Source: a virus (lineage: Duplodnaviria; Caudoviricetes). From it: a DNA stretch of 52,717 nt. The DNA is taken from positions 1-52,717 of the IMG/VR virus record IMGVR_UViG_3300035701_000046; one strand, given 5' to 3'. Each line of letters opens with the position of its first letter. Position 1 is the stretch's first letter. Below the pieces are notes generated by a model. That model was not told the origin of the DNA and did no database searches. It worked only from the letters and a program-made list of their open reading frames with translations. Below are positions 217-20,450 of the stretch, one piece after another. The position numbers were made by a program, and so were the translations under genes.

Positions 217-1578
217 TCAGACCGGTAATCCGTTATCGTTACTCGCCGATTCCTTCGCTTCCCGCGCCCAACAGTGGATTCGACCGATATCTCCACGGGG
301 ATAAAGAACCATCTGCTCATCCCCGGCTTCTCCGTCGCGATCCTTCGCGAATCCGAGGTTCAGCGTCTTGTCTTCGAAATCTTCCTCTGTCTGAGAGAGA
401 TAGAGAACGGCGGTACACCATTCGGTCGGCGCGCGTCCGTACTTGAAATCGTCCTGAGTGAGGTACTTGTCGAACTTCGTCTTTCCAGCGGCCTGCCCGA
501 ACGCGACGAGAGCGAGACCCTTCTCCTGTTTCCAACTTTTCGCCAGGAGCTGCATGCTCTCGGCGGCGAGCGCGATGTCTTTCCAGTCTAGGGTGGCAGC
601 GATGTCGGTCAACTGATCGATGATGACCAGGTCAGGATCGAATGGGAGCATCAGCAGCTCGGCTTCAATCGCGGCCATCGTGGGCTTTTTAGGGTATGAC
701 CGTACCTCGTATATCCTCTTTGCGTCTTTCCATTCCTCGGTGTCCTTCATGAAGTCTGTGAGCTGCTCCTGAGAGAGAAGCCACGGTTTTCTGAGAAGGA
801 CGTTTGTCGGGATCTCGGAGCGCCGGGCGTAGAAGCGAGCGATATCCTTCTCGGCCCGCATTTCGAGGCTGAATTTCACGACCTTGAAACCGGCAAGCGC
901 CGCCGCGTAGCCGATCTGCGTCCCGAACAGACTCTTGCCGCGTCCCGAGTATCCGAAGAGAAGGTAGTTCTCCCCTCGATACCAGCCCCCACCGAGCCTT
1001 TCGTCGAGCCAGGGGATTCCTGTCGTTATCGCGTTGGTCCCCGTGTCTCCTGCTTCAACCCGCGCGAGCAGAGTACGCAGATAGCTGTCCGCGTCTCGCG
1101 TAATCGGGTCCACACGAACCACCCGGTCACCTTCGGTCGCGAGCCGCTGCACGATCGTCATCATCGAGGTCGAGAACGCGGCGAAATTCTGCCTGTCGAG
1201 ATGTTCGAGACTCTCGCCGATGCCCTGGTGAGCAACGTGGACTTTGTGCTTGATCTTTAGCTGATCCCGGAGGAAGTCGAATCCCTCGGGTTCGGTGGTG
1301 CCGTAAATCTCATCGAGAAGGTTATCCAGTAGACCGATGTCCGTAAGGGCGAGCTTGGGATTGTCCGATTTGATCGATTGGATAAGGATCTCGCGGGAGG
1401 GCGGGATATCGTTGTACGTCTTGAGATAGGTGAAGATTGCTCTGCCGACAATCTTCGTGTAGGGATTCAGAAAGTAATCGAGCTTGAGGCCAGACTCGCG
1501 ACGGCGTAGACGCTCCCGCGTGTCGGGTTGGTGTATGAGACAGGCGAGTACCTTCGCCTCGATCGCCCGTGCATCCAT
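217..1578 (-). CDS. dnaB: DnaB-like replicative helicase
   Basis: 453 aa; 'ITTGIPWLDERLGGG', Walker A GYSGRGKS, FSLEM, Walker B 'LVIIDQL', 'AKDRDG' arginine finger. Confidence 0.92.
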   Translation of the reverse strand: MDARAIEAKVLACLIHQPDTRERLRRRESGLKLDYFLNPYTKIVGRAIFTYLKTYNDIPPSREILIQSIKSDNPKLALTDIGLLDNLLDEIYGTTEPEGFDFLRDQLKIKHKVHVAHQGIGESLEHLDRQNFAAFSTSMMTIVQRLATEGDRVVRVDPITRDADSYLRTLLARVEAGDTGTNAITTGIPWLDERLGGGWYRGENYLLFGYSGRGKSLFGTQIGYAAALAGFKVVKFSLEMRAEKDIARFYARRSEIPTNVLLRKPWLLSQEQLTDFMKDTEEWKDAKRIYEVRSYPKKPTMAAIEAELLMLPFDPDLVIIDQLTDIAATLDWKDIALAAESMQLLAKSWKQEKGLALVAFGQAAGKTKFDKYLTQDDFKYGRAPTEWCTAVLYLSQTEEDFEDKTLNLGFAKDRDGEAGDEQMVLYPRGDIGRIHCWAREAKESASNDNGLPV

Positions 1579-1758
1579 TGTTCAGCTATATGTAAACGGT
1601 TGCAGTGTTGTCGTTGAAAAGAGAGATTTGAGGGTACTACTTTCACGGCTTGATCTGCAAGAGAATCAGAGACCCGGCTCCGTTTTTCTGTGGAAAACAT
1701 GTGGCCCTGCGAGAAACGACGGAGCCACAATATCTTGAGCAAGTCTAGGCGATCGATA

Positions 1759-2673
1759 CTACTGGTTCGGTTTCTCCGAGACGGTCGCTCCGAGCGGTTT
1801 CCATTTGTTCATGAACCTCAGCTCGCATAGGTAAACCCGCGTGCTATACACGCACCGGGCACAAGGAAACAACGAGGTCTGACTGCCCCCGGTCTTTTCG
1901 AAAGGGAGCCGTTTCATACAGGGAGGCTCCCCGGTCAGAGTAGCCCTGTGGGCAATTACACGGTCAATATCGGCTTTATTCTCTCGGAAATCGGGAGATT
2001 CACGAGTGATCTTCATCGTGGAGAAAGCGAATGCCCTCGAAACGATTGACCATCCGGCTCTCTTGGAGAAGGCGGCATGCCCCATGTTCGTGTTCATCAC
2101 AACACATCGCTTCCGCCGTCCACCGGCAGTGACCCGATCGATCAGATCGAAAAGGTCCTCAGCGTCCCACCATTTCTTCTCGCCCTCAGAGGAGAGATTA
2201 TCGATGATCACCAGCCGGGCTGCGTTGAGCATCTCCAGAAGTTCCACGTAGAGAGCCGGGTTGTGCATGATGAATTTTTTCTTGTCCACCCACTCACGGA
2301 TCGACACACAGAGCGTTGGGATCTTGTGGACTTCAATCGCCTCGCTGGCAATCATGTAACTGAGAAAACTCTTCCCTCGCCCAGACTCACCGATGATCAG
2401 CAAACCGGTTCCCGCGTGGATGTGGAATCGAATCTGTCTCGCGAATTCCATCGCTTTTCTAAGAGGTTCCCGATTAGGGACCTGGTAATCCTCCCACTGG
2501 CTAAACAAGTAGTCGAACGGCACGCCGCTCTTGAAGGCCCGCTCGACAAAATGGAGCGCCTCCCTATCCACCGGCCCGCGCATGACCTGGGGGAAGCTCT
2601 CTTTGAGAATCTCCCGGAGCTGCGTTGGGTAGGACGAGCGCAGATCGAAATCGCGGAGGCTTCTGTCTTGCAT
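1759..2673 (-). CDS. DnaC/IstB-like AAA+ ATPase (helicase loader)
   Basis: 'GLLIIGESGRGKSFLS', Walker B 'LVIIDNL', 'MNTN', 'IVSR'; adjacent to dnaB; start moved to ATG 2673 after GAGGTG. Confidence 0.85.
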   Translation of the reverse strand: MQDRSLRDFDLRSSYPTQLREILKESFPQVMRGPVDREALHFVERAFKSGVPFDYLFSQWEDYQVPNREPLRKAMEFARQIRFHIHAGTGLLIIGESGRGKSFLSYMIASEAIEVHKIPTLCVSIREWVDKKKFIMHNPALYVELLEMLNAARLVIIDNLSSEGEKKWWDAEDLFDLIDRVTAGGRRKRCVVMNTNMGHAAFSKRAGWSIVSRAFAFSTMKITRESPDFRENKADIDRVIAHRATLTGEPPCMKRLPFEKTGGSQTSLFPCARCVYSTRVYLCELRFMNKWKPLGATVSEKPNQ

Positions 2674-2680
2674 GTTCACC

Positions 2681-2866
2681 TCATTCCGGCATCGGCGGAT
2701 CTGATTTGTTCCCGAGAATCCAATCGATTGCCGCGACAACGCCATCCTCGTATGTCCCCATTTCGGGACGTTCCCTTCCCGCTTCGCGGTCATCGATACT
2801 ATCCATCGCCTTCTGCGCCTGGTCGTCGATCTCCGCTTTGGTCCGTTCTGTTATTAAGTTCTCCAT
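2681..2866 (-). CDS. small hypothetical protein
   Basis: 61 aa, AGGA SD, 'TYEDGVVAAIDWILG'. Confidence 0.65.
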   Translation of the reverse strand: MENLITERTKAEIDDQAQKAMDSIDDREAGRERPEMGTYEDGVVAAIDWILGNKSDPPMPE

Positions 2867-2911: not shown

Positions 2912-3835
2912 TTACTCGTGCTCTGGCGGTTTTATGGCATATTCCTTCTCGACGAATCCGGGCAGACGGCCATGTACCATAGTGTGCCGTACCCAAATCC
3001 GTCGGCCATCCCAGAGCCGACGAATATGACCACGTCTGAAATGAGAACGGAATCCAGGACCAGTGCCTGTCGAAGTATGTGGTGAGTCCCAAACTTCTGA
3101 ATCAACGACTAAAACCTTGTACGAATATAGTGGAGTTCTATCTCTTCGTTTTCTCGCGCGTACCAGCTTTTCAGGGGGGGCTATATCCCTCGTTTTGACG
3201 TTATGAAGTGAGAGCATTACCATGAGGTTCAGTGCCGCGCCGAAATCGGTAAGGTACTCATTAACTACTTTCGCAGGATCCAATCCCCCTGCTCGTAGCT
3301 TTTCCTGCATGCTTGGAGAAAGCGCCGAAGTTGCTTGGAACCCTGGGCCGTGATCAGGAAGGAACATGACTGCCGCTGTCCCCTCTGTCATCCATCTCGG
3401 ATATTCAGACTTGAAATACGATGTACTAAAAACGTAGAAAGCGCGTCCTGGACCGTCTTCTTTGAAACGTTCTTCTACGAATCTTTTCCCGACAGCGCCT
3501 GCGTTTGAAAAGACAAGCGTGATTTTCCATCCTCGGCAGATGATCTTAAATTCTGATCCCGTCTCTGGCGTGTCTTCTCTCAGAAATTCTTCGGTGAGAA
3601 TAATCGTAGGCTCGGCTGGCAGCCTTATCGTTGCCTTCAAATCTTCTGTGATCACATTTGTCTCACCAAGAATCATGGCAGCATCGGGCAAGTAGAAACG
3701 TTGCCCGAATTTCAAACCTCTCGCCAATAACACGAGATTGGTAGCGACACTGGGATCTGAACTGCGATCATTGACACACCGTGTAGCCAATTCTCGGATA
3801 TCTTTCTCGGCTTGTGTGAACTTGGACCAGTGCAT
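2912..3835 (-). CDS. hypothetical phage protein with C-terminal H-x-RRGH-x-R motif
   Basis: 307 aa, GGAG SD, 'RSHFRRGHIRRLWDGRRIWVR'. Confidence 0.8.
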   Translation of the reverse strand: MHWSKFTQAEKDIRELATRCVNDRSSDPSVATNLVLLARGLKFGQRFYLPDAAMILGETNVITEDLKATIRLPAEPTIILTEEFLREDTPETGSEFKIICRGWKITLVFSNAGAVGKRFVEERFKEDGPGRAFYVFSTSYFKSEYPRWMTEGTAAVMFLPDHGPGFQATSALSPSMQEKLRAGGLDPAKVVNEYLTDFGAALNLMVMLSLHNVKTRDIAPPEKLVRARKRRDRTPLYSYKVLVVDSEVWDSPHTSTGTGPGFRSHFRRGHIRRLWDGRRIWVRHTMVHGRLPGFVEKEYAIKPPEHE

Positions 3836-6345: not shown

Positions 6346-6834
6346 CTACCCGGAAACAGGGGATCGTTTGGCCCATTTCTGGCAAAGCATCATGTGGCCT
6401 CGGGCCGCGTCCCACGCCTTGTTGTATCCAGTGAAATCAAGTTCTAGCCCCGATATTTGTGGAAGCCCGCAACCGCAGTCTTTCGATACACACGGATCTC
6501 CCGCCCTGAATACCATCGTCTCGTATTTGCGATCATAGCCGATGTACGCGAATCCAAACTCTTTCATGTAGGCGTGGTCAAAATCGTCGCCGCGAAGTTG
6601 CTGGTTAGCAACTAGCCAAGCTGGTTTGTAGACCTTCGCGTGTATTTCTCTGCTCCCGCGCTCCGGCCAGTACTCTCCGACCGTCGATATGAGCCACGGG
6701 CCAACCTTCGTGCAAAGATGAAAACGGCACCACTGGGCGCAGATGAAGTGCCCGGCGTGCCCGAACCACTTCCACCGCTGTTTTGGAATCGGCCTATCCC
6801 TCGTGACCCAGACCCTCATGGTTTTCTTCGGCAT
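6346..6834 (-). CDS. hypothetical phage protein
   Basis: 'WKWFGHAGHFICAQWCRFHLCT..STVGEY..YETMVF'; start uncertain. Confidence 0.7.
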   Translation of the reverse strand: MPKKTMRVWVTRDRPIPKQRWKWFGHAGHFICAQWCRFHLCTKVGPWLISTVGEYWPERGSREIHAKVYKPAWLVANQQLRGDDFDHAYMKEFGFAYIGYDRKYETMVFRAGDPCVSKDCGCGLPQISGLELDFTGYNKAWDAARGHMMLCQKWAKRSPVSG

Positions 6835-10904: not shown

Positions 10905-11253
10905 GACTCGTGTGATACCCTGCGACGGGGTGGGCGGGGAATAAGCATGTACAAGCATCTGTGGTAACCCGGTCGAAGACCGACTGCCGGAGTGGAACCT
11001 CTCCAAAACCATCTTTCTACACAAGTTCCAATCCGCCAGGAACCCCCCGAGAACGGTGTGGGGTAGCAGGAAACCCCTACAGCCTCCGCCTTCCGTTCAG
11101 GCACAAGGATCCCTGGCTTGGACAAAACGATACCGATGGCTTGGGAGGGTAAACAAAACGGTATCGCTGGCACCACCCAACCCCACCGAGCGGCTCGCGA
11201 GCCAGCTCGCTCGCGAATCCGAATAGCAGTCGGTCCCCCCGTCAAAGAGAGTC
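10905..11253 (+). ncRNA. candidate large structured ncRNA (~350 nt)
   Basis: nested long-range stems 10924-30/11237-43, 10978-87/11226-35, 11051-56/11093-98, 11128-35/11159-66; no credible ORF. Confidence 0.6.
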
Positions 11254-11299
11254 GCCCCCAAGAGGCCCGGATTCTGTGTCCAGTTGTAAGGAGGTTTCC

Positions 11300-11920
11300 A
11301 TGATAGAAATCATCTGTATTCTTGACCGAAGTGGGTCAATGACGAGGATAAAGAACGATGCGATCGGATCCTTCAACACGTTCCTGACCGAGCAGCAGAA
11401 GGTCCCCGGTGACGCGGTCGTGACGGTGGTGCTTTTCAACGACGAGTACCGGGCGCTCTATGAGCAGAAACCGCTCGCGGAGGTCCCGCTCTTGACCGAA
11501 GAGACGTATCAGACGACTGGGTCCACGGCGCTCCTCCACGCGATCTGCCGGACCCTCGAAGCTCCCGACAAGCCGGAGCGCGGTATCGTCGTGATCCTCA
11601 CGGATGGCGAGGAGAACGCTTCCCCGGTGGAGTACACCAAGGAACGCGCGGCGAAGGCCGTGAAGGCGCTGGAGGACAAGGGCTGGCAGGTCCACTATCT
11701 GGCGGCGAACCAGGATGCGTTCGCGGAAGGGGCGGCCCTCGGGATCACCCATACGTTGAACTATGCCGCGACGCCCGATGGAATCCGGCACGCTTATGCG
11801 GTGGCCGGTCAATCGACGATGTGCTATCGTACCGGATTCCCGCCGCATGTGACGTTGCCCGATGGGACGACGGCGGATCCGATCGCGTTCCAGAGCACGA
11901 CGACCGATGGAAAAGACTGA
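11300..11920 (+). CDS. von Willebrand factor A domain protein
   Basis: MIDAS 'ILDRSGSM', 'GSTAL', 'VILTDGEENAS', 'YLAANQDA'; AAGGAGG SD. Confidence 0.93.
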   Translation: MIEIICILDRSGSMTRIKNDAIGSFNTFLTEQQKVPGDAVVTVVLFNDEYRALYEQKPLAEVPLLTEETYQTTGSTALLHAICRTLEAPDKPERGIVVILTDGEENASPVEYTKERAAKAVKALEDKGWQVHYLAANQDAFAEGAALGITHTLNYAATPDGIRHAYAVAGQSTMCYRTGFPPHVTLPDGTTADPIAFQSTTTDGKD

Positions 11921-12626
11921 CCGGATTCTCACTGGGGATGCCCTGACCGTTCTCGGGACGCTTGATTCGGAGAGCGTCCAATGCTGTGTCACGTCGCCCC
12001 CGTATTGGGGGCTACGTGACTACGGCACGGCGACGTGGGAAGGTGGGGACGCGGCGTGCGACCACAGGGTAGGTGGGCAGGTGCCGGACAACAAAGCTCC
12101 GGGCGCAATAGTAACCGGCCAACGACCGGGCGTTGACGCGAGCGTGTGCCGCAAGTGCGGTGCTTGTCGAATCGACGACCAACTCGGCCTTGAATCCACG
12201 CCGGAGGAGTATGTCGCCCACATGGAGGCGATCAAGGAACCAATGGCCGAGGCGTCTGCGGCAAGGTATGAATACTCGTTCGGCGGGGAAAAGAACATCC
12301 GACTAAAGGCAACAGATAAGCCAACCGCTCTTGTCGGAAACAGAGATGTCACCGATGGCCGTAACCGCCGCTCGGTCTGGACGATCACGACGAAGCCTTA
12401 CAAAGAGGCCCACTTCGCCACGTTCCCCCCGGAAATCCCCAAGCTGTGCATCCTCGCGGCAACGAGGCCGGGCGATGTCGTCCTCGACCCCTTCTTGGGG
12501 AGCGGGACGACGGCTGCGGTTGCCCTGGAATTCGGCAGGCGCTACATCGGGATCGAGCTGAAGGCGGAGTACGTCGAACTCGCGAGGATGCGGTTGAAAC
12601 AGACTAACGTCGGTCTCGGGATTTGA
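11907..12626 (+). pseudogene. beta-class N4/N6 DNA methyltransferase with apparent in-frame internal deletion
   Basis: TSPPY, HFATFP, VLDPFLGSGTT, GIEL present; the core between 'PEEYVAHM' and 'EAIKEP' is missing. Confidence 0.7.
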
Positions 12627-12633
12627 ATAATTC

Positions 12634-12662
12634 TTGACAACCCCATCGGGACGTGAGAAGAT
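12634..12662 (+). promoter_or_regulatory. sigma70-like promoter
   Basis: TTGACA-N17-GAAGAT. Confidence 0.65.
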
Positions 12663-12684
12663 CGCCCGGCTAAGTTGTCGTTGT

Positions 12685-12782
12685 CCGAATTCCCCGTGTC
12701 CGCGAAAGCGGTGAGGAGCAAAGGCCCGGAACACTGTCTGTTCGCGGGCGATGGAATCCAAAGACAGCGCGGGGCAATTCGG
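12685..12782 (+). ncRNA. candidate structured leader RNA, motif copy B
   Basis: closing stem CCGAATT-CCCCGTG/CGCGGGG-CAATTCGG, CCGC-GAAA-GCGG hairpin, CTGTCT/AGACAG stem. Confidence 0.55.
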
Positions 12783-12806
12783 TATCTCAAGGAAGGAAGG
12801 TTGACG

Positions 12807-13328
12807 GTGAAACTCATCGAGGCGATGAAGCGGATCAAAGAGCTTCAGCAGAAGGCGGACGATATCAAGAAGAAGGTCGCGGATAACTGCGCCCTTCTCT
12901 CGATCGAGACGCCGGTGTACGGGAAGGATCAGATCACGCAGATCACCGGCTGGCTCCAGTCGTGTTCGGACATCAGGAAAGAGATTCTGAGACTCCGAGT
13001 CGCGATTCAGCGGACGAATCTGGAGACCAAGGTCGAGGTCGATTTCGGCGAGCCTACGGGCCGCGTGACGAAGACGCTTGCCGAATGGATCCACCGGCGG
13101 CGCGATCTGGCGAAAGCGGATGAGACTCTCTGGATGTCTCTCACTGACCGGAATCTGAAAGAGCAGAGGGTTTCCTCGGGTCCGGCCCAGCCGGGTACGG
13201 ATATCACGATCATTCGGTTCTTCAACCCGGTACAGCGGGATCAGATGATCGCGCTTTACCGGGCGGAGCCGGGGATCATCGACCGGACGCTTGAAGTGAC
13301 GAATGCGATCACCGATCTGATCGAGTAG
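12807..13328 (+). CDS. coiled-coil protein resembling the DIP1984/DUF6847 family
   Basis: GTG start after AGGAAGG; 'MKLIEAMKRIKELQ..IQRTNLET..TLAEWIHRR..LEVTNAITDL'; family assignment from memory. Confidence 0.65.
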   Translation: MKLIEAMKRIKELQQKADDIKKKVADNCALLSIETPVYGKDQITQITGWLQSCSDIRKEILRLRVAIQRTNLETKVEVDFGEPTGRVTKTLAEWIHRRRDLAKADETLWMSLTDRNLKEQRVSSGPAQPGTDITIIRFFNPVQRDQMIALYRAEPGIIDRTLEVTNAITDLIE

Positions 13329-13335
13329 GTTTTTG

Positions 13336-13659
13336 TCGCAGCTTACGTGAGGAGATAAAAACCGGCAGTAGTGTAGCGACTCGACTACAGTTGAAACCCG
13401 TAGTCACGCCTGAAAGGGCACAGGTTTATGGAACCTGCAATTAAAAACCTCGTCGGACTTGAAATCCGATGCGATCCTTCAAGGATGCAAGGTTCAAGAC
13501 CCAAGGCAGTAAGGCTCAAGTCGAGTAAGGCAGCAAGACGCAAGAGAGTAAGGATGGAACGCTGAGGCCGCAAGGCGAGTAGGCGAATGTCCTCGGACAA
13601 GTTATCGTACTACACTCCGGCCCGGATACTTCTGAGGCTTCCCTCCTGGGAAGCTGCGA
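13336..13659 (+). ncRNA. candidate structured ncRNA with a YAAG repeat tract
   Basis: terminal stem TCGCAGCTT/AAGCTGCGA, inner stem AGTGTAG/CTACACT, four local hairpins, ten YAAG units at 13480-13552. Confidence 0.75.
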
Positions 13660-13702
13660 TTTAAGACGATTGTTGACGTTGAACAAGAAAGGGGAACGGA
13701 TA

Positions 13703-13867
13703 ATGGCTTTCAATCAAAACGAACTCGCGAAGAGAATCGCGGCGAAAGGCGAGATAAAGGCGGTTCAGGCCAAGGAAGCGATCCGCGAGACTCTTTACGA
13801 GTTGGCGCGGCTGAGCGACAAAGACCTAGCGCGGGTTCTCAAGAAGTATCAGGCCATTAGTTTCTGA
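13703..13867 (+). CDS. short HU/IHF-like protein (N-terminal helices only)
   Basis: 'FNQNELAKRIAAKGEIKAVQAKEAIRETL' resembles HU helices 1-2; no beta-arm. Confidence 0.55.
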   Translation: MAFNQNELAKRIAAKGEIKAVQAKEAIRETLYELARLSDKDLARVLKKYQAISF

Positions 13868-14078
13868 TCGAGGGAGCGCGGGTGCGTTCGACGACGAAAC
13901 CACGAGCAGCGAGAGCGATTCTTTCTGATGGGCTGTGGCCTGATCATCCTCCGGCTCTCTTGTGGCGGATGTCGTGAGGTGGTTCAGAAGCGGATAACAA
14001 GTTGGTGCGCTGGGTAGCTGATCGGCTCTCCCAATATCCCTGCCAATCCGCGACGCGCCTTTTCTTAGATTGTTCGAA

Positions 14079-14402
14079 ATGGAAGACAACAAACGCTGGA
14101 ATCGCACCGATCTCCCCGATGTGATGTTCGATCACGTTGTCACGATCGAGATTAATCATCCTTTACAGAGATTTCGCATCTTCTTTTCTGAGCAGTTCAC
14201 GAAGGATTTGACCGATTTCTGGGAGGCGACGGGACTCGGCCCACAGAAGGTGGAACCCGTCCCAGATGGCCCGCTGATGTTCCGTGGCGAATATAAATTG
14301 ATAGAAGGGAAATCTCTTTTTGAGTCTGTCAACGAGACTCTTTGTCAGATGCAGAAGACAAAGGCGTATCCGATGACACCGTCGAAGAAGTCGGTTCAAT
14401 GA
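14079..14402 (+). CDS. hypothetical protein
   Basis: ~107 aa ORF. Confidence 0.5.
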   Translation: MEDNKRWNRTDLPDVMFDHVVTIEINHPLQRFRIFFSEQFTKDLTDFWEATGLGPQKVEPVPDGPLMFRGEYKLIEGKSLFESVNETLCQMQKTKAYPMTPSKKSVQ

Positions 14403-14420
14403 GGATCGCGCGGTAACAAG

Positions 14421-14696
14421 CTACGATACGCTCCTTTTCGTGTTGCAATTCTGCAAGGTCAGCGGAGCATCTGCGGGCGGTGGCCCTGATCGGAGCAGAT
14501 CGAGGGCAAGGGATAAGAGAGTTTGTGCATCTTCTGAAGCAACCGTTGCGCTCCACCATTCTTCCTCTATCTTGACCCAAAATCCGAATCGTATACCTAT
14601 CGCGGTATTGGCCCACCCCATTCGGAGTTCGCCATAGTCTGAAACGGGGTACCTGTTGAGAAGTTCTGAGATTTCTGTGTCGCATTTCATGAACAT
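14421..14696 (-). CDS. hypothetical protein
   Basis: 91 aa, GGAG SD. Confidence 0.55.
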   Translation of the reverse strand: MFMKCDTEISELLNRYPVSDYGELRMGWANTAIGIRFGFWVKIEEEWWSATVASEDAQTLLSLALDLLRSGPPPADAPLTLQNCNTKRSVS

Positions 14697-14717
14697 GACT
14701 CGTTCTCTCCAATCGCT

Positions 14718-14924
14718 TTATCCACGGTGAATTTGTAGGTCGTGCGCTTTCAGATAGTCGATGATCTTGTTGATCGCATCCCGGTTCTCGATCACGTACC
14801 GGATCATTTCTTGAGCCGGTTTCGTGGAAACTGGTTCGGGGTCAAGCGTGATATCGAGAATCTCAGGTAACGGTCGTGGGACCTCTGGATGGTCTTTCTC
14901 CTTGCTGGAATCCGTCTTTGTCAT
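14718..14924 (-). CDS. hypothetical protein
   Basis: 68 aa, ATGA coupling to SNF2 gene. Confidence 0.6.
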   Translation of the reverse strand: MTKTDSSKEKDHPEVPRPLPEILDITLDPEPVSTKPAQEMIRYVIENRDAINKIIDYLKAHDLQIHRG

Positions 14925-16774
14925 CCTCTGTACCTCCTGACGATATCGCGGATGCTCTCCCGTGTAACCGCTTTCCCTTCATCCCCGTCGTCCATGAAGT
15001 CGATCATGACCTGTCGTTTAGGTTCCAGGATGTTGTTGAAGATGTACTCCTCAACCGTGCGTTCCGTGAAAAGCGTGCAGATGATCACCTGGTCGAACTT
15101 GGACGTAAACCGGCGGACGCGCCCGGCTCGTTGCTGCATGTGTGCGGGATTCCACAAGAGATCGTAATTGACGAGCCATCGCGCGGCCTGAAGATCGCGG
15201 CCTTTCTGCCAGACATCACTCGTGACGAGAATCTTGACATCGGGGTTCTCCTGGAACTCGGTCTGGATCGCCTCGCGGTCAAGGTCCATCCCCCCGTGGA
15301 GACCGATCGTGCGCCAGTACCGATCGAGCTTGTCGATGAGTTTCTCAACGACCTTCTGGAAGTAGGCGAAGACGACGAATTTCGCCTCCGGCTCGGCGGA
15401 CTCGATCACTTCGAGGAGCAGGTCGAATTTCGGGTTTTCCGTGACGTTCGGATCGACGATCTCGGGGAAGCAGCAGACTTGCCGCTCTCGGTTCATCCTC
15501 CAGAGGCTATCCGTCGGGGCGATGAATCCCCGGTCGCGGATGACTTCCTCGCGTTTCTTCTCTTCCTCGTCCAGAACCTGCCGGTAGAGTGCCCGCTGAT
15601 TGGCCGTTAAAATAATTCTACGATCGATAAAGTGCATCTTTGGAAGGACATCCTCGGCTCCCTCAAGCTGGTCGATCCGGCGGCGAACCACGTAGGGTCG
15701 GGCTTTCCTCTTGACCTCCGGGATCCGGCGGTACTTCTCGACCTCGCTGTAGGCTTCCGCGTTGATGTAGCGGAGATCGAATCCGTAGAAGCTCCCGAAG
15801 ACCTCGGGCCGAACGACCCGGAAAACGCTGTGAAGTTCCTCCAGGCGGCCCTCGATGTACGTCGCTGACATGGCGTAGACGTGCTCAGCTTGGTTCGCGA
15901 GATGGCGAACCCCGATTGTCTGAAGCGAACTCGGGTGCTTGCAGTGCTGGACCTCGTCGATCACCATCGCGTATTTCCCGGCGGCTTGGCGGATAAGCAT
16001 GCAGTCTGCCTCGGCGGTGATGACGGCGGGCGGAGTTCGCTGACCGGGCAGCTTCGGGGGGCGCTTGATCCCAGATCGGAGCGTCGTGTACCCGATCACG
16101 AGGTAGCAAGGTCCGGGGTCGGCGGCGAAAGCCTCGTAGAGCTTCCTGCGGCGTTTCGGGTTGCCAGAGATCACGTAGGCGGGCCAGGGGACGAACTTCT
16201 GCACCTCGCCCGGCTTTTTGGCTGTCCCGCCCCATTTCTCCCGGAGATCCGTCTCGCAGATGATGATGACCTTGCCGTAGGTGTTCTTGAGGAACCCGAG
16301 CGCCGTCGCCGCCAGCGCCTCGACGCTCTTCCCAGAGCCGGTTGGGTCCCCGGAGAGTGCCCGACGGCTCCTGAAAAGGAAGTATGCGGCAACCTGCTGG
16401 AATCGGGGGAAGTTCTCGGCCTTGAAGTACCCGTCGAGACCGAGTCGATCCGGGATCGTCTCGGGGAGCTGCTGCTGGAGTCCCCGGCGGCGTGCGATGC
16501 TCCCGCGCCACAGGTCGATCAGTTGGCGCGCGGCGACCGTATAGCTGAGCGCGATCGGTTGCGGATACTTGGTCGAGAGCTGGGTGGCATCGTCGATCAA
16601 GTCATCCAGGCAGTTGAGCGGGATGAACCAGAGCTTGGTTTTATCGTCATACTTCCGGCTTGCGAGGTTGCGGACCAGGGAGAGCATACTGGCCCAGTCC
16701 GCAGACCCGTTACCGGATCGGCGAATCTGGACGGTCAGATTCTTACCATCTCGTGCGTCGTCGATGATGAACAT
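14921..16774 (-). CDS. SNF2-family (SF2) helicase/ATPase with HARP-like N-terminus
   Basis: 'DPTGSGKS', 'IDEVQHCK', SAT, 'YDLLWNPAHMQQRAGRVRR'; N-terminal 'RKYDDKTKLWFIP'. Confidence 0.92.
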   Translation of the reverse strand: MFIIDDARDGKNLTVQIRRSGNGSADWASMLSLVRNLASRKYDDKTKLWFIPLNCLDDLIDDATQLSTKYPQPIALSYTVAARQLIDLWRGSIARRRGLQQQLPETIPDRLGLDGYFKAENFPRFQQVAAYFLFRSRRALSGDPTGSGKSVEALAATALGFLKNTYGKVIIICETDLREKWGGTAKKPGEVQKFVPWPAYVISGNPKRRRKLYEAFAADPGPCYLVIGYTTLRSGIKRPPKLPGQRTPPAVITAEADCMLIRQAAGKYAMVIDEVQHCKHPSSLQTIGVRHLANQAEHVYAMSATYIEGRLEELHSVFRVVRPEVFGSFYGFDLRYINAEAYSEVEKYRRIPEVKRKARPYVVRRRIDQLEGAEDVLPKMHFIDRRIILTANQRALYRQVLDEEEKKREEVIRDRGFIAPTDSLWRMNRERQVCCFPEIVDPNVTENPKFDLLLEVIESAEPEAKFVVFAYFQKVVEKLIDKLDRYWRTIGLHGGMDLDREAIQTEFQENPDVKILVTSDVWQKGRDLQAARWLVNYDLLWNPAHMQQRAGRVRRFTSKFDQVIICTLFTERTVEEYIFNNILEPKRQVMIDFMDDGDEGKAVTRESIRDIVRRYRG

Positions 16775-17524: not shown

Positions 17525-18349
17525 ATGTCCGAACGTCCGAAGACCCCCGAGCTGTCCATTGTGGATGGCGGCAAGCCAGAGGGACAGGCGGGCCAATCCC
17601 GTCCCGAGGGTTTACCGGGGCAGAAATGCTTGGCGCGGCGTCGTGTTTGCGCATGCACTCACCGCTTCGTCAAGGATGAGCGGATCGTCGATCGTGATCT
17701 ATCTGTGCGTATGCGGCCAGATTACGACCGGCGAAAGCTAGGGGTTTGCCCTAGCTGTGGGCTGGTCCGCGAACTCTGCGGCCAGCCTGCGGTAGAAGGC
17801 CGTTATGTTTGCCGCTTCCACGGCGGTAAAGCAGGCCGGAAGCCGATGGTCCCTGTTATTCACGCTCTCAGGGACGAAGACCGCGATGCTGTCGTCGCTT
17901 CGATCGAAGCGAAGGACGAAAACCTCACCGTCGAATTCCACGTCGTCAAGCACATCCTCGATTCCGTCCTCACCCAGTACGACCCCGAACTCGCTGACCT
18001 AGATTTCGCTGAACGCGCTGTCGCGCTGCTCGATCGTGTTTCTTCGATCGGCGAGCGTCGGGCGCGTCTACGTCTGCTTGTCCCGCCAGACCTAGAGAAG
18101 CTCAAGCTCGACTTCGGGGATCCTCGTGTTTCGCTCGCCATCAAAGAAAAGATGCGAGACAACTACGAGAAGGCTATCCGGGGAACCGTTCAACTGATGA
18201 TCGAAGCGGTGAGGCGGGATCCCAAATTACTCGAAGGCGTTATCAAGCTCCTGCCTGAGCGGCTTCGGAACTACATCGAAGTCGTTTCGGCTCGACCCGC
18301 ACAATTCCAGATCACTCTACCAAATGCCCAAGAAACCCCGGAGCAGTAG
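17525..18349 (+). CDS. terS: putative terminase small subunit (HGG zinc-finger type)
   Basis: 'CGQPAVEGRYVCRFHGG'; directly upstream of and overlapping terL. Confidence 0.65.
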   Translation: MSERPKTPELSIVDGGKPEGQAGQSRPEGLPGQKCLARRRVCACTHRFVKDERIVDRDLSVRMRPDYDRRKLGVCPSCGLVRELCGQPAVEGRYVCRFHGGKAGRKPMVPVIHALRDEDRDAVVASIEAKDENLTVEFHVVKHILDSVLTQYDPELADLDFAERAVALLDRVSSIGERRARLRLLVPPDLEKLKLDFGDPRVSLAIKEKMRDNYEKAIRGTVQLMIEAVRRDPKLLEGVIKLLPERLRNYIEVVSARPAQFQITLPNAQETPEQ

Positions 18350-20450
18350 CCCCGGTAACGGCAAGCCCAAGAAGAATGCCGATATCGACTCGCTACTCGA
18401 CGAGATACAGAATAACGCCCTGCGCGAGCTGTCGTTGCAGCTCCCCGAGGTCCACCAGATCGCGGCCCGATCCGGCGTGGGAAGCCCGGTCTCTGACATC
18501 GCGTGGGTCGAACAACCCGTTACGTTTCACGAGTTTGTAAACGATCCGTGGCACATGGATCAGCCGCCTTTGGGAGATCGGCAGCGCCAGGATATCGAGA
18601 CCTTTCTCGGCGAAGAACCGACGCAGATTTTCTCCCGGCTGGCATCCCATCTCGAAGGGGCCTTCCGCGAGGCGGTGCTTGTGTGGGGAAAGGGGGGCGG
18701 AAAAGACTGGATCTGCACGATGGTTCAGTGCTATCTGGTCTACCTGCTCCTGTGCATCAAGGACCCCCGGCATGTTCTCGGTCTTGCCCCTCACGAAGCG
18801 GTAGACATTCTCAATGTCTCCTATTCGGCGAAACAGGCTAACGAGGTCTATTTCACGAAGTTCCTCCAGCGTATCCTGCACTGGCGCTGGCTCCGGCATA
18901 ACTATCCGATTGAGTTCCAGAGAAAAGTCATCAACCGGGAAGATCACCCTCATGCTCAGCTTCAGCCAGATGGGCAAAATTACGTTCATATTGGGGCTGA
19001 TCAGGTGCGCTTCCCCCACTTGATCCGCGCCATCAGCGAGCACAGTGAGAACGAGAGCTACGAAGGGTACAACATCCTTTTTTGGGTCATGGATGAAGCG
19101 GCAGCCTTCCGTAACGCCGGGAAAAAGGCGAACGCCCACAAGGTCTACTCTACCCTTCGGACCTCGGCGGTAAGCCGGTTCCCGCAGCTATGGCGGGGGA
19201 TGATGATCAGCTACCCCCGGAGTGCCGACGATTTCATCATGACCAAGTACGCCCAAGGCCAGGCGGACTCGGAGTGTTTCACCTCGCTCGCGTACACCTG
19301 GCAGGTAAATCCGACCAAACAAGAGTCCGATTTCGAGAAAGACCGGGAGAAGAACCCGGTCGAGTACGAGGCCAAGTACCGTTGTAATCCGCCCCCGCGT
19401 TTCGGGTCGGCATTCGACCCTCTAAACGTCGATGCCTGCGTGGATTACAGCCGGAAATCCTTGGTGAAGACAAAGCCCGCGATCATTTCCGCACGGGTAG
19501 AGGAACCCGGTACGGGAGTGGTATATCAGAGGCAGTTCGTTGGGAAATCGTTGACTGACGTGAACGTACACGATCTCGGAGAAAAGGCCCGCCCCCGTGT
19601 GTTTCACGTCGATGGCGGCCTGACGAACTGCCCTGCCGGGCTTGTCGTGGCTCATGGGGAACCAGTCATGGTTCAGGGTCAAGTCCTGAACAAAGTCGTG
19701 GTCGATGTCCTCTTGCAGTGGAAACCGCTGCCCTCGAAGCGGCTCCAGGTCTCGCTCAACAACATCGCGGCTTTCATCGAGACGCTTTCGCATCACATCA
19801 CGATCGTCCGGGGGAGTTACGATCAGTGGAACTCTCAGTCGGCTCTGGAAGCCCTTTTCTTGGCGAATATCCCGGTCGAGAAGCACGATATCACGGCGGA
19901 CGACTATGGATGCCTGGAGGGCCTCATTAACCTCGGCTGCATCGCTATTCCAGGGGATGACGAGACTGAGTGGGAGATCATTACCGCCGAGTTGAAGAAT
20001 CTCGTCCGGTACAATGTCGGTAGCAGGATCCGATACGACATCCCGCGCGAAGAGGGGGAGACCACACGGGACGATTGGGGAGGGCCTCGGTACACCAAGG
20101 ACATCGCGGACTGCCTCGCCGGGGTCTCGCGTCTCCTGAACGATCCCCTTATCCGGGCCGATGTCTCCGGGACTCGCGCGCCTGGCCTTATTGCTGGCCC
20201 GAGTATGAGTTCGCAGGGTCGGGGGCAGCCGATCAGCGCCCGGCGGGATCTCGCCAACCGGGGATACCTCCCCGAGAAACTTCCTGCCTCGACGTTCCCG
20301 ACGGAAGCCGGGTTCATGGGGGCGCAGATGAATCAATCGTCGCGAGCCGCGAATCAGCATGTGCTCCTCACGGAGATCGCGGGGAAGATGCGTCTACGTG
20401 GCATCAACGAGCCGACGACCCGTAGACCGCCGAAACCGATTATCAAGTAA
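18324..20450 (+). CDS. terL: terminase large subunit
   Basis: Walker A 'WGKGGGKD', Walker B 'WVMDEAA', 'ISYPR', nuclease 'FHVDGG', 'SYDQWNS', 'KDIADC'. Confidence 0.92.
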   Translation: MPKKPRSSSPGNGKPKKNADIDSLLDEIQNNALRELSLQLPEVHQIAARSGVGSPVSDIAWVEQPVTFHEFVNDPWHMDQPPLGDRQRQDIETFLGEEPTQIFSRLASHLEGAFREAVLVWGKGGGKDWICTMVQCYLVYLLLCIKDPRHVLGLAPHEAVDILNVSYSAKQANEVYFTKFLQRILHWRWLRHNYPIEFQRKVINREDHPHAQLQPDGQNYVHIGADQVRFPHLIRAISEHSENESYEGYNILFWVMDEAAAFRNAGKKANAHKVYSTLRTSAVSRFPQLWRGMMISYPRSADDFIMTKYAQGQADSECFTSLAYTWQVNPTKQESDFEKDREKNPVEYEAKYRCNPPPRFGSAFDPLNVDACVDYSRKSLVKTKPAIISARVEEPGTGVVYQRQFVGKSLTDVNVHDLGEKARPRVFHVDGGLTNCPAGLVVAHGEPVMVQGQVLNKVVVDVLLQWKPLPSKRLQVSLNNIAAFIETLSHHITIVRGSYDQWNSQSALEALFLANIPVEKHDITADDYGCLEGLINLGCIAIPGDDETEWEIITAELKNLVRYNVGSRIRYDIPREEGETTRDDWGGPRYTKDIADCLAGVSRLLNDPLIRADVSGTRAPGLIAGPSMSSQGRGQPISARRDLANRGYLPEKLPASTFPTEAGFMGAQMNQSSRAANQHVLLTEIAGKMRLRGINEPTTRRPPKPIIK

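Follow-up and report, generated by a model that had tools for sequence, protein, structure and literature searches.

A family of structured phage RNAs encoded beside DIP1984/DUF6847-like genes

An uncatalogued family of phage RNAs

We analyzed a stretch of viral DNA of 52,717 nucleotides (hereafter the window), which corresponds to positions 1-52,717 of IMGVR_UViG_3300035701_000046, a virus record 41% complete. Comparative sequence analysis identified the segment 13336-13659 on the + strand as belonging to a large family of phage RNAs, ~270-400 nt in length. This family, of which >100 metagenomic copies were found, is apparently a new and previously uncatalogued family of structured non-coding RNAs in uncultivated tailed phages. 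On balance, we favor the view that the RNA constitutes, with the DIP1984/DUF6847-like gene beside it, a co-oriented two-part module, in which a pseudoknot core accompanies the display of a variable slot and a periodic YAAG tract, and in which the protein would bind the RNA. The features of the window are as follows.

12807-13328, + strand: gene of a 173-aa helical protein, remotely DIP1984/DUF6847-like; ORF with a GTG start and a TAG stop at 13326-13328
13336-13659, + strand: whole non-coding RNA, 324 nt long, with P1 as its closing helix; homologues found in 72 locus rows
13336-13352, + strand: P1, 5' strand, with outer TCGCAGCTT and inner GAGG; pairing in the window read from the sequence
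13353-13361, + strand: junction AGAUAAAAA linking P1 to P2a, conserved and unpaired; columns invariant or nearly so
13362-13365, + strand: P2a, 5' strand, CCGG
13370-13376, + strand: P2b, 5' strand, AGUGUAG
13383-13405, + strand: P4 hairpin, read from the sequence; its loop in the window is unlike the CGAUA-containing loop of several relatives
13408-13469, + strand: variable central slot, occupied in the window by three simple hairpins with a GAAA cap, a loop of 5 nt and a loop of 7 nt, respectively
13480-13553, + strand: periodic YAAG tract of ten units, two arms flanking a short variable hairpin
13557-13584, + strand: variable hairpin before P3, including GCC-GCAA-GGC at 13567-13576; read from the sequence
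13585-13603, + strand: P3, 5' strand, GAAUGUCCUCGG..AAGUU
13610-13616, + strand: P2b, 3' strand, CUACACU, within the P3 loop
13622-13625, + strand: P2a, 3' strand, CCGG, within the P3 loop
13626-13641, + strand: P3, 3' strand, A.ACUU CUGAGG C UUC, abutting P1
13642-13659, + strand: P1, 3' strand, CCTC ... AAGCTGCGA

Homologues were collected and aligned with nhmmer profiles and MAFFT, together with a custom duplex test, and the counts on the structure and the tract refer to 39 aligned non-redundant members. The Rfam search that the first-pass annotation of this DNA had suggested was run with Rfam 15 and gave no match across the whole window: no family reached its gathering threshold, and just four rows at the chance level (E ≥0.52) appeared in 13200-13800 at E up to 10. 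In the loci of 12 relatives, Rfam recognized tRNA (RF00005) alone, in four loci. All of the members were derived from metagenomes. Neither the protein nor the RNA matched the cultured phages in INPHARED, and the protein, the sole query used for PLSDB, found no match among the plasmids. A single DNA pattern searched against 185,579 species genomes gave 17 pattern matches and no family member, those inspected being unrelated heptamer arrays. Among the sequencing runs listed as matches, there were 11 DNA runs (sediment metagenome) and no RNA run. No description of the RNA family was found in our literature search; the available part of PMC10690425 presents a catalogue of 8,495 IMG/VR candidate RNAs, which may contain the present family.

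Covarying helices and the pseudoknot core

The first-pass annotation had described stems, hairpins and AAG triplets in the window, and the coordinates of all of these were correct to the base. The segment 13336-13344 (TCGCAGCTT) matches the reverse complement of 13651-13659 (AAGCTGCGA) at every base, and AGTGTAG (13370-76) is exactly complementary to CTACACT (13610-16); these two stems turned out to be the family helices P1, which closes the RNA, and P2b, respectively. The four hairpins at 13383-13405, 13408-13419 (GAAA loop), 13421-13437 and 13453-13469 can be read in the sequence and are present in the MFE fold as well. The pseudoknot and the tRNA link of the relatives were absent from that annotation.

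Four helices covary in the family, namely the closing P1, the long-range P2a and P2b, and the hairpin P3. The 11 pairs of P1 were paired in 96.5% of the cells and 10 of them changed on both sides, while P2a (four pairs, 94.7% paired) changed on both sides in all four pairs and P3 (15 pairs, 95.7% paired) in five; for P2b, the corresponding count was seven of eight pairs. Over the four helices in the 39 members, 91.6% of the cells were paired versus 75.4% in shuffles, and compensatory (both-side) changes were found in 26 of the 38 pairs. The covariation value was 0.520 versus 0.196 in shuffles, none of the 500 shuffles attaining the former, and the value was at most 0.152 when the partners were slid. 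Covariation of the closing stems, proposed earlier as a check, was thus found for P1, P2a/b and P3 alike. On the evidence of these alignments, the RNA is a genuine closed and structured molecule.

The register of P2a was taken from the family alignment, because the window has a second CCGG at 13617-20. In the duplex test of P2, the cognate segments gave -12.1 kcal/mol versus -6.6 kcal/mol for non-cognate ones, and none of 5000 permutations was as low. As the 3' strand of P2 sits in the loop of P3, P2 and P3 together form a pseudoknot. The junction between P1 and P2a (13353-13361) had a mean predicted unpaired probability of 0.75. For the variable hairpin at 13557-13584, a separate alignment (A3) of 15 members shows four positions, each paired in 11-13 of the sequences and represented by 2-4 pair types. 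The CGAUA-containing loop of P4 was seen by eye, uncounted, in several relatives.

The strand claimed for the RNA agrees with the tolerance of G-U pairs, which was observed on the + strand only: G-U and A-C cells in the helices amounted to 107:44, and to 36:4 in P1 alone. The strand was judged by these counts because the single-sequence folds of the two strands had similar z-scores (-2.38 and -2.45).

The gene adjoining the RNA

When loci were anchored on the RNA, 59 of the 72 locus rows held a DIP1984-like gene, on the same strand as the RNA in all 59, and the remaining 13 rows extend at most 830 nt upstream of the 3' domain of the RNA. When they were anchored on the protein, the RNA was found beside the gene on the same strand in all of the 80 viral loci, 76 by HMM (57 strong matches downstream of the gene, 11 strong matches upstream and eight weak ones) and four by eye. 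Of the last four, two are AT-rich and divergent, a third is a divergent copy upstream of the gene, and the fourth is a mini-RNA of ~110 nt. The orientation of the gene relative to the RNA was therefore constant in both sets (59/59 RNA-anchored and 76/76 protein-anchored loci). The RNA had been expected downstream of homologous genes; it adjoins the gene in 80 of 80 loci, though upstream in some, so that both gene orders exist, and HNH-like or other ORFs lie between the two in some loci. In the window, P1 starts 7 nt past the stop of the gene. No conservation was seen among the flanking genes, as no flanking protein family was common to more than two of 20 loci. From these comparisons, the RNA is obligately associated with the DIP1984-like gene. 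The RNA covaries, adjoins the gene in every protein-anchored locus and lies amid unconserved neighbors, and for these reasons we regard the gene-plus-RNA module as well supported.

The mini-RNA belongs to the locus L211, which resides on the same contig as L006 and encodes a protein 44% identical together with a pseudoknot core of ~110 nt. It retains P1, the junction, P2a and P3, and has neither the slot nor the YAAG tract. This single case among the 80 could be a decaying locus.

The N-terminus of the protein, MKLIEAMK, was matched in 14 homologues. The likeness to DIP1984/DUF6847 noted in the first pass stands as a sub-threshold similarity, while both curated cut-offs were missed: the protein scored 20.2 bits against Pfam DUF6847 (PF20935; cut-off 27, E 6e-4) and 31.7 bits against NCBIfam DIP1984_fam (NF038048; cut-off 70, E 1.4e-7). 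Being below both cut-offs, the protein is at best a remote DIP1984/DUF6847 relative by sequence. The AF2 model (pLDDT 87.8) comprises four long helices and a small sheet, and the best PDB match of this model in Foldseek was 3kdq_A (prob 0.96, E 0.042, TM 0.34-0.39, rmsd 17 Å), a solved protein of C. diphtheriae with no function assigned. A wide search of the fold with VIA-align retrieved generic helical bundles (best Z 7.2), and no RNA-binding precedent was found among the fold matches from Foldseek and VIA-align. By sequence, the single protein had no match in the PDB and a profile gave a chance UvrB row (E 1.1). The ESM Atlas contained just viral 'hypothetical protein' clusters, with one neighbor cluster bearing PF20935 in 20% of its members. 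A homodimer was predicted with an ipSAE of 0.77 versus 0.00 for the best control; this mark was reached by 20 of 30 solved pairs and one of 23 single chains, and the homodimer runs agreed in at least 98% of the contacts, with a partner pLDDT of at least 91. The relatives of the protein are near neutral (median pI 7.8). No paper containing 'DIP1984' or 'DUF6847' was retrieved in our literature search.

The periodic YAAG tract

The ten AAG triplets of the tract start, as claimed earlier, at 13481, 489, 496, 503, 511, 518, 527, 535, 542 and 550, each after C or T, with successive spacings of 8, 7, 7, 8, 7, 9, 8, 7 and 8 nt. YAAG occurs 294 times on the + strand of the window, equivalent to 0.42 expected per 75 nt. 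Chance does not account for the tract: the RNA sequence was shuffled 5000 times at the mononucleotide level without once reaching ten YAAG, and outside the tract the densest 75-nt stretch of the window, both strands considered, has four.

In the alignment of the 39 members, the tract is conserved in register, with five of the ten units of the window found in 37-39 members. AAG occupied the same columns at 13489 (39/39), 13503 (38/39), 13511 (39/39), 13527 (37/39) and 13550 (38/39), as well as at 13496 (29/39), 13542 (27/39), 13535 (18/39) and 13518 (7/39) in fewer members. The unit at 13481 had AAG in the same columns in 8/39, and one column earlier in most. The length of the tract is 84-88 nt in 36/39 members. 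The AT-rich members keep UAAG at a period of 7-8 and lose the G following AAG, which weakens a Shine-Dalgarno-like reading. Degenerate units had also been proposed to continue to ~13583, and these were weaker: beyond the ten units, AAG recurs just once (13572), as part of the GCAA loop of a local hairpin, and the corresponding columns hold AAG in 3/39 relatives.

The thermodynamic prediction gave an unpaired probability of ~0.43-0.45 for the tract. No tandem units of ~34-36 nt were found, TRF reporting just a 24-nt period with 2.2 copies. The non-coding nature claimed for the tract was borne out by the relatives, no more than 18/39 of which share a frame open throughout. A coding reading of the tract was rejected, as there is no conserved frame among the 39 relatives.

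The central slot and tRNAs

In the relatives, the slot is occupied by a real tRNA, by a circularly permuted, capped tRNA mimic or, as in the window, by plain hairpins. ARAGORN detected a tRNA in the slot of 9/39 non-redundant members, and the T arm precedes the D arm in 5/39 (L005, L018, L137, L143 and L144); the acceptor stems of these mimics, as read from the sequence, are capped and bear no CCA end. Forty-eight of the 80 protein-anchored loci carry tRNAs; of the total of 90, 37 occupy the slot and 88 share the orientation of the gene. In L189, arrays of ~20 tRNAs follow. The embedded tRNA lies 4-59 nt from the start of the 3'-domain match in five loci compared by hand (L145, L150, L158, L164 and L195). 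There are no tRNA genes in the window, and its slot is not tRNA-like; thus, the tRNA link is a trait of the family and not a property of the window copy. ARAGORN found no tmRNA in the window or in the 39 members.

Comparison with known systems

TRAP rings bind regularly spaced NAG triplets, one per subunit. The sites of TRAP comprise 9-11 (G/U)AG triplets 2-3 nt apart and those of HutP comprise UAG triplets with 4-nt spacers; the targets of both are purine triplets ending in AG, arranged in two clusters in unstructured RNA. The present tract likewise consists of periodic AG-ending purine triplets in two clusters, but the triplet is a Y-preceded AAG instead of (G/U)AG, the period is 7-9 instead of 5-6, and the tract resides within a closed pseudoknotted RNA instead of an mRNA leader. 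For HutP taken individually, the period (7-8) is similar and the triplet differs. In the window, which comes from a record 41% complete, there was no match to TrpBP (PF02081), for which the B. subtilis genome was positive as a control, or to HutP (PF09021).

The core motif of CsrA is GGA. The CsrB/RsmZ sponges, like the present RNA, carry many short purine motifs per molecule, whereas GGA is present in 2/10 units here, the motifs are not in hairpin loops, and there is no Rfam match; no CsrA gene was found in the window. Type III toxin-antitoxin systems of the ToxIN type have tandem RNA repeats of ~34-36 nt beside an endoribonuclease toxin, in contrast to units of 7-9 nt, no nuclease family and no PADLOC match here. 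The stable RNAs C and D of phage T4 are small, lie in the tRNA gene cluster and are co-transcribed with tRNAs, and to our knowledge they have no partner protein; by this description alone, they resemble the present RNAs as small RNAs tied to phage tRNAs. Together with SmpB, tmRNA shares a tRNA-like part, a single-stranded tract, pseudoknots and a small partner protein with the present module, but ARAGORN called no tmRNA here, the mimics are capped without CCA, and the tract has no conserved frame.

Ro60 (Rsr) and YrlA likewise represent a protein gene with an adjacent non-coding RNA in bacteria and phages, and YrlA likewise has a stem closing its 5' and 3' ends plus a separate effector module. 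According to the available part of PMC4201824, the YrlA module is a tRNA mimic ordered as T arm, capped acceptor stem-loop and D arm, an order shared by 5/39 members here and not by the window. The present system differs in the helical DIP1984-like partner, the pseudoknot core in place of a Ro-binding stem, and the additional YAAG tract. The Rfam models for Y RNA/YrlA had no match in the window or the loci of 12 relatives, and TROVE/Ro60 (PF05731) had none in the window, where the gene adjoining the RNA is the DIP1984-like one.

GOLLD and ROOL are also structured RNAs of phages and prophages, often near tRNA islands. In the part of the preprint consulted (10.1101/2024.12.08.627333, preprint of a 2025 Nature paper), GOLLD is described as sometimes having tRNAs in a variable linker, many GOLLD RNAs exceeding 800 nt, and ROOL as having no protein partner identified. 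The present family resembles GOLLD in that 37/90 tRNAs lie inside the RNA, but its members are ~270-400 nt (324 nt in the window) and matched no Rfam model in the window or the loci of 12 relatives, and it has an obligate partner gene unlike ROOL. The tRNA-island location was observed in the 48/80 relatives' loci with tRNAs, and the window has none.

Possible functions of the module

In the module that we favor, P1 closes the RNA, P2a/P2b pair the 5' region with the P3 loop to give the core pseudoknot, and the large loop carries two display elements, the variable slot and the register-conserved YAAG tract. The protein, a predicted homodimer, would bind the RNA, and the invariant pseudoknot core is its most likely binding site, because the core is retained wherever the protein is. 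The slot for the tRNA and the tract may then be effector modules offered to a multi-site binder, either the protein itself in more copies or a host factor from the tRNA/translation machinery, and the particle may be part of a phage tRNA-island programme for tRNA supply, processing or protection. In the tRNA-bearing members, RNase P and 3' processing would free the tRNA and leave a two-piece RNA joined by P1 and P2. The co-occurrence by itself would fit a physical complex, co-function or co-regulation alike, and the modeled fold with no RNA-binding precedent and the near-neutral pI (median 7.8) appear to count against protein-RNA binding.

Large, strongly covarying RNAs without known function are rare, and earlier cases (riboswitches, OLE, GOLLD, ROOL and Y RNAs) opened new biology. 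The notable traits here are the covariation-backed pseudoknot core, the slot capturing normal or permuted tRNAs and the periodic motif kept across shifts in G+C. DIP1984/DUF6847, a family with no assigned function, is now linked to an RNA, and with its obligate partner gene the RNA lends itself to direct tests through co-expression, pull-down and cryo-EM. Ornate RNAs are associated with phage tRNA islands for reasons yet unexplained, and the present family is a third and far smaller RNA class showing this association. As a tentative and in our opinion doubtful extension, the module may represent a new class of phage RNP, in which a dimeric DIP1984-like protein clamps the pseudoknot core while the RNA displays a tRNA or capped mimic beside the YAAG platform and tethers the protein, in a Y-RNA-like manner, to the host tRNA/translation machinery or a tRNA-targeting defence nuclease, thereby protecting or re-routing the tRNA pool in infection. 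If true, RNA binding would be the first function for the large DUF6847/DIP1984 family.

The first-pass annotation had instead tied protein to RNA through the tract, proposing that an oligomer of the DIP1984-like protein binds it; in this model, the oligomer would wrap the single-stranded tract in the manner of TRAP or HutP, one subunit per YAAG. This model finds support in the five units in register in 37-39/39 members, the persistence of UAAG in AT-rich members, the nearly constant tract length (84-88 nt in 36/39), the predicted self-association of the protein (at least a dimer) and the resemblance of NAG triplets at a period of ~7 to HutP sites. We nevertheless regard it as unlikely. The sole oligomer run predicts a homodimer, the fold is a helical bundle and not a beta-rich ring, and the proteins are near neutral. 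L211 keeps the protein and the RNA core without the tract. Furthermore, AAG is present in at least 37/39 members for just five of the ten units (7/39 for the unit at 13518), so the number of units is not fixed, unlike what a ring of fixed size needs.

It is quite unlikely, in our judgment, that the RNA is a cis-acting cassette bound by no protein, its flanks serving as leader and trailer of a phage tRNA unit (processing, stability or termination) with the protein as the first gene. Such a cassette would accord with the 37/90 tRNAs within the RNA, the tRNA arrays often 3' of it, the tract just 3' of the embedded tRNA in five loci and the tight apposition of RNA and gene in either order. On the other hand, about half of the members, the window included, have no tRNA yet retain the pseudoknot, the junction and the tract. 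The invariant unpaired nucleotides and the in-register tract exceed the needs of processing stems, and a cassette of this kind does not explain why a single protein family strictly accompanies the RNA while its other neighbors are unconserved.

A sponge or decoy, which can coexist with the favored module, seems very unlikely as the function of the RNA. The YAAG tract would titrate a multimeric host RNA-binding protein, pair with CUU(A) RNA (the anticodon loop of tRNA-Lys or the 3' end of 16S rRNA) or decoy a tRNA-targeting nuclease, the protein stabilizing or helping the RNA. Periodic multi-site motifs are typical of CsrB and RsmZ, and the family is located in tRNA islands; phage tRNAs have also been reported to counter tRNA-targeting defences in the available parts of PMC10264068, PMC11464382 and PMC11555353. 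Against this stand the GGA found in just 2/10 units of the window and the absence of CsrA, TrpBP, HutP and Ro60 genes from it.

DNA-level repeats (iterons or sites of origin/partition proteins) or a type III toxin-antitoxin pair are already disfavored and scarcely credible: short direct repeats do occur near replication genes, DnaB-/DnaC-like genes lying at 217-2793, but the helices show covariation in which G-U pairs are tolerated only on the + strand, the spacing varies (7-9) under an orientation to the gene fixed in 59/59 and 76/76 loci, and neither 34-36-nt tandem units nor a nuclease family or PADLOC match was found, nothing pointing to the antitoxin role once suggested for the RNA.

Transcription signals

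The gene and the RNA are most likely co-transcribed. The promoter proposed at 12634 was not recovered, as a consensus scan called no site in 11000-15000 and, by direct reading, the second hexamer GAAGAT matches TATAAT at 3/6 positions.

A terminator-like hairpin lies at 13306-13323 within the 3' end of the protein ORF, and by eye it is missing from L004, the sole relative checked. In L052 and L223, loci in which the RNA comes first, promoter-like hexamers are seen by eye just 5' of P1.

Searches and members of the RNA family

The IMG/VR virus record is of a tailed phage with an estimated completeness of 41%, and the gene and the RNA under study are located as follows.

Features of the window
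217-2793: DnaB- and DnaC-like genes
11276-12626: vWA gene and N6/N4 DNA methylase, on one side of the gene-RNA pair
12807-13328 (+): gene of the 173-aa protein
13336-13659 (+): RNA, 324 nt
13408-13469 (+): variable central region of the RNA ("slot")
13480-13553 (+): periodic YAAG tract of the RNA
14921-16774 (-): SNF2 helicase, on the other side of the pair
18324-20450: large terminase
33082-35040: portal
35181-37355: head protein

Relatives of the upstream protein were found at nine loci in viral contigs, and the closest five visibly carried a similar downstream region. A degenerate DNA pattern made from the tract served as a search that does not depend on the protein. This pattern returned 24 stretches in viral contigs (11 true members and 13 unrelated), 93 stretches in metagenome contigs (51 members) and, in one genome per species from 185,579 species, 17 stretches with no member among them. 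A profile of the 3' domain added the RNAs of three loci, lying upstream of the gene in L005 and L007 and 1 kb downstream in L008. After clustering at 92% identity, 38 full-length RNAs (271-398 nt) remained, which together with L009 make up a 39-row alignment (A6). Rfam 15 yielded nothing in the window at gathering scores, and nothing at E up to 10 beyond chance-level rows; at 12 relatives' loci, it matched tRNAs only.

The species-genome matches inspected were simple heptamer arrays. Such tandem arrays (GGTTCAA, CAAGGCT etc.) match the tract pattern without the RNA core and are unrelated to the family. They were seen between genes in various bacterial genomes and metagenomes. Some have an inverted copy as a partner, and the L092 array consists of repeated units of ~250 nt, each with AGTAAGGATGGTAAC at its end.

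Heptamer arrays (locus:positions)
L035:7440-7480
L036:2340-2380
L043:1200-1300 and 6660-6790
L044:2019-2080
L049:2900-2980
L083:400-440
L092:990-1490

Linkage between the gene and the RNA

The co-occurrence of the gene and the RNA, which was observed in both search directions, is the strongest result of this study: the gene is an obligate, co-oriented partner that can stand on either side of the RNA. Starting from the RNA, the gene was present in 59 of the 72 RNA-bearing locus rows, always in the same orientation (gene first in 57, RNA first in two), and the remaining 13 rows all have at most 830 nt upstream of the 3' domain of the RNA. In L052, an ORF beginning with MKI lies at the contig end directly after the RNA. 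Starting from the protein, 80 of the 117 viral relatives obtained with a profile search were kept; the RNA was downstream in 57 of these loci and upstream in 11 (4-116 nt ahead of the start codon), eight had a weak full-length match, and four had no match. By eye, two of the last four (L160 and L161) contain divergent AT-rich copies with two tRNAs, and L223 has a divergent upstream copy behind a promoter-like TTGACA/TATAGT pair. The fourth, L211, which is on the same contig as L006, possesses a mini-RNA of ~110 nt (L211:3365-3490) immediately 5' of the protein gene. The mini-RNA retains the closing helix P1, the junction AGAUAAAAAC, P2a, and a P3 of 5 bp whose loop contains the P2a strand; a single small hairpin replaces both the slot and the YAAG tract.

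The gene and the RNA are separated by insertions (HNH-like or other ORFs) in L031, L066, L008, and L090. When 20 loci with long flanks were compared, none of the neighbouring protein families was common to more than two of them. Thus, we regard the pair as conserved as a unit amid unrelated neighbourhoods.

The insertions in L031:2620-3125 and L066:1-222 are ORFs with HNH-like Cys/His motifs as judged by eye, and those at the same place in L008 and L090 measure ~1 kb and ~2 kb. Sigma-70-like hexamers occur directly 5' of P1 in the RNA-first loci L052 (TTGCGT..TATAAT, ~40 nt upstream of the RNA, minus strand) and L223 (TTGACA..TATAGT, 3205-3240), suggesting that transcription starts at the 5' end of the RNA in these loci. 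Among the sequencing runs searched, none of RNA type contained the window sequence.

A pseudoknotted core

The RNA represents a real plus-strand family with a pseudoknotted core of four helices, derived on the 39-row alignment. The first-pass annotation correctly placed a 9-bp closing helix (13336-13344 with 13651-13659), the pairing of AGTGTAG with CTACACT, and four hairpins (13383-13405, 13408-13419, 13421-13437, and 13453-13469) in the window sequence. The first two correspond to P1 and P2b of the family; P3, P2a, and the pseudoknot were not seen by it.

Helices of the core in the 39 members (number of pairs; share of cells paired; pairs changed on both sides)
P1 (5' and 3' ends): 11; 96.5%; 10
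P2a (CYGG/CCRG): 4; 94.7%; 4
P2b: 8; 74.4%; 7
P3 (GAAYGNCC....AAGUU with AACUU....GGCUUC): 15; 95.7%; 5

Over all four helices, 91.6% of the cells are paired versus 75.4% in shuffles. The covariation score was 0.520 versus 0.196 in shuffles (none of 500 scored as high) and fell to 0.152 or less when the partners were slid by 1-3 columns. The paired fraction of P2b is lowered because MAFFT partly misaligns this helix, and P2 was therefore tested without any helix alignment: the duplex of each 5' segment with the P3-loop segment of the same RNA averaged -12.1 kcal/mol versus -6.6 kcal/mol with 38 foreign partners, a cognate energy equalled in none of 5000 permutations. The loop enclosed by the P3 strands contains the 3' strands of both P2a and P2b; P2 therefore crosses P3, making the core a pseudoknot. 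P1 directly adjoins P3, and the P1-P2a junction is a near-invariant unpaired AGAUAAAAA. G-U cells exceed A-C cells (107 versus 44 overall; 36 versus 4 in P1), which places the RNA on the same strand as the protein gene.

The central slot and its tRNAs

The family is variable from the P4 hairpin (13383-13405) to the tract, and this slot captures tRNAs. ARAGORN detected a tRNA in nine of the 39 non-redundant RNAs (Leu-taa, His-atg, Val-aac, two Gln-ttg, Arg-tct, and three with odd anticodon loops). In five members, the T arm comes ahead of the D arm; these are circularly permuted tRNA mimics.

Permuted tRNA mimics
L005:2745-2830
L018:3930-4000
L144: within 857-1172 (minus strand)
L137
L143

The mimics run from the 3' strand of the anticodon stem through the variable loop and the T arm to an acceptor stem of 6-7 bp capped by a short loop, the D arm, and the 5' strand of the anticodon stem; by this order, the mimic joins the rest of the RNA via the anticodon stem. 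The tRNA-like domain of the Y RNA YrlA has the same topology, as described in PMC4201824. Rfam gave no match for the mimics. The window contains no tRNA, and its slot comprises three plain hairpins without a tRNA signal.

Altogether, 90 tRNAs were found in 48 of the 80 protein-anchored loci, 88 of them on the strand of the gene: 37 are in the slot, 22 within 600 nt, 20 farther away, and 11 in three loci without a profile match. Many specificities are represented among the embedded tRNAs, which thus look like cargo rather than a fixed functional part. In L189, a run of ~20 tRNAs follows the RNA.

Long co-oriented tRNA arrays (up to ~20 genes) begin inside or directly after the RNA (L189:4094-6126, L160:4244-5186, and L220:3233-6561); in several lineages, therefore, the protein-RNA pair heads the phage's tRNA island.

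The YAAG tract

The ten AAG triplets noted earlier in the window, at spacings of 7-9 nt and always following C or T, are indeed there. The ten YAAG fall in 75 nt, where 0.42 would be expected from the window's own frequency; other 75-nt stretches on either strand of the window hold four at most, and none of 5000 shuffles of the RNA attained ten. The tract is nearly fixed in length (84-88 nt in 36 of the 39 members), the other three members having a hairpin insertion of 30-40 nt in mid-tract, and its units are conserved in register.

Members (of 39) with AAG in the same alignment columns as the window unit
13481: 8 (one column earlier in most members)
13489: 39
13496: 29
13503: 38
13511: 39
13518: 7
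13527: 37
13535: 18
13542: 27
13550: 38

Five units are thus held in the same columns, a sixth (13481) is apparently shifted by one column, and three are half-conserved; the window, with its ten-fold period, shows the family pattern at its most regular. The units form two arms flanking a short variable hairpin. AT-rich members retain UAAG at a period of 7-8 and lose the following G, so that the unit is YAAG and not a Shine-Dalgarno-like AAGG. No open reading frame crosses the tract in more than 18 of the 39 members.

The partner protein

The 173-aa protein had been described as DIP1984/DUF6847-like; it is a remote relative of this family that scores below both curated cut-offs. In its AlphaFold model (pLDDT 87.8), four long helices are accompanied by a small sheet. 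The best Foldseek match was 3kdq_A, a structural-genomics protein of C. diphtheriae (prob 0.96, E 0.042), and the remaining matches were generic bundles. The protein is predicted to be a homodimer, with an ipSAE of 0.77 versus 0.00 for the best of three controls. Of 30 solved pairs, 20 attained this mark, as did 1 of 23 single chains. At least 98% of contacts agreed between the runs, with a partner pLDDT of at least 91. Fifteen aligned relatives are near neutral (median pI 7.8).

Proposed function and alternatives

The gene product and the RNA would form a ribonucleoprotein, since protein and ncRNA genes in strict linkage generally encode such complexes (Ro60 with Y RNA, Cas9 with tracrRNA, and RT with msr/msd). 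The protein may recognise the pseudoknot core, because the core persists in one lineage that lost the remainder, and the slot and the tract could be display modules with a target in the sphere of tRNA or translation. Taken whole, we consider this best explanation probable on balance.

The tract recalls the targets of TRAP or HutP by motif but fails the defining features of both, and the oligomeric protein ring on the tract proposed by the first-pass annotation is unlikely, set beside the predicted homodimer and the tract-less mini-RNA. Slightly less likely is a processing cassette that works without protein binding, with tRNAs inside the RNA on one side and the strict linkage to the gene on the other. 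A host-factor sponge as the primary role seems quite improbable. DNA-level or toxin-antitoxin readings are hardly credible beside a fold that reads on one strand.

Comparison with known systems

By architecture, the ribonucleoprotein proposed here is closest to Ro60 with YrlA, sharing the adjacent gene, the closing stem, the modular tRNA mimic, and the occurrence in phages; unlike that system, there is no TROVE gene in the window, no match to a Y RNA model, and no Ro-binding stem. By context, GOLLD and ROOL, which lie at phage tRNA islands, are the closest, but the family RNA is related to them neither in sequence nor in fold, and it comes with a partner gene. According to 10.1101/2024.12.08.627333, GOLLD sometimes has tRNAs in a linker and many members exceed 800 nt, the present RNA being far smaller. 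Our literature search found no paper mentioning DIP1984 or DUF6847 and no description of this RNA. A 2023 catalogue of 8,495 structured RNA candidates drawn from IMG/VR (PMC10690425) could hold the RNA uncommented. We therefore consider the gene and the RNA to be a phage RNA-protein module of a new kind, the reality of which is well supported.

Additional observations at the locus

A 180-nt untranslated gap (12627-12806) extends from the methylase stop to the GTG start of the protein gene. It contains imperfect inverted repeats (12687-12696 with 12770-12780) with CTGTCT/AGACAG within them, and a GGAAGGAAGG run precedes the GTG codon. A terminator-like hairpin with a T-run (13306-13323, +) overlaps the final codons of the protein gene directly before the RNA; by eye, it is missing from L004, the sole relative checked. 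Directly after the RNA, a 54-aa ORF (13703-13867, +) begins with MAFNQNELAKRIAAKGE..., resembles by eye the N-terminal helices of HU/IHF-type proteins, and has no match in Pfam, NCBIfam, PHROG or PADLOC. In every relative, a different gene occupies this position.
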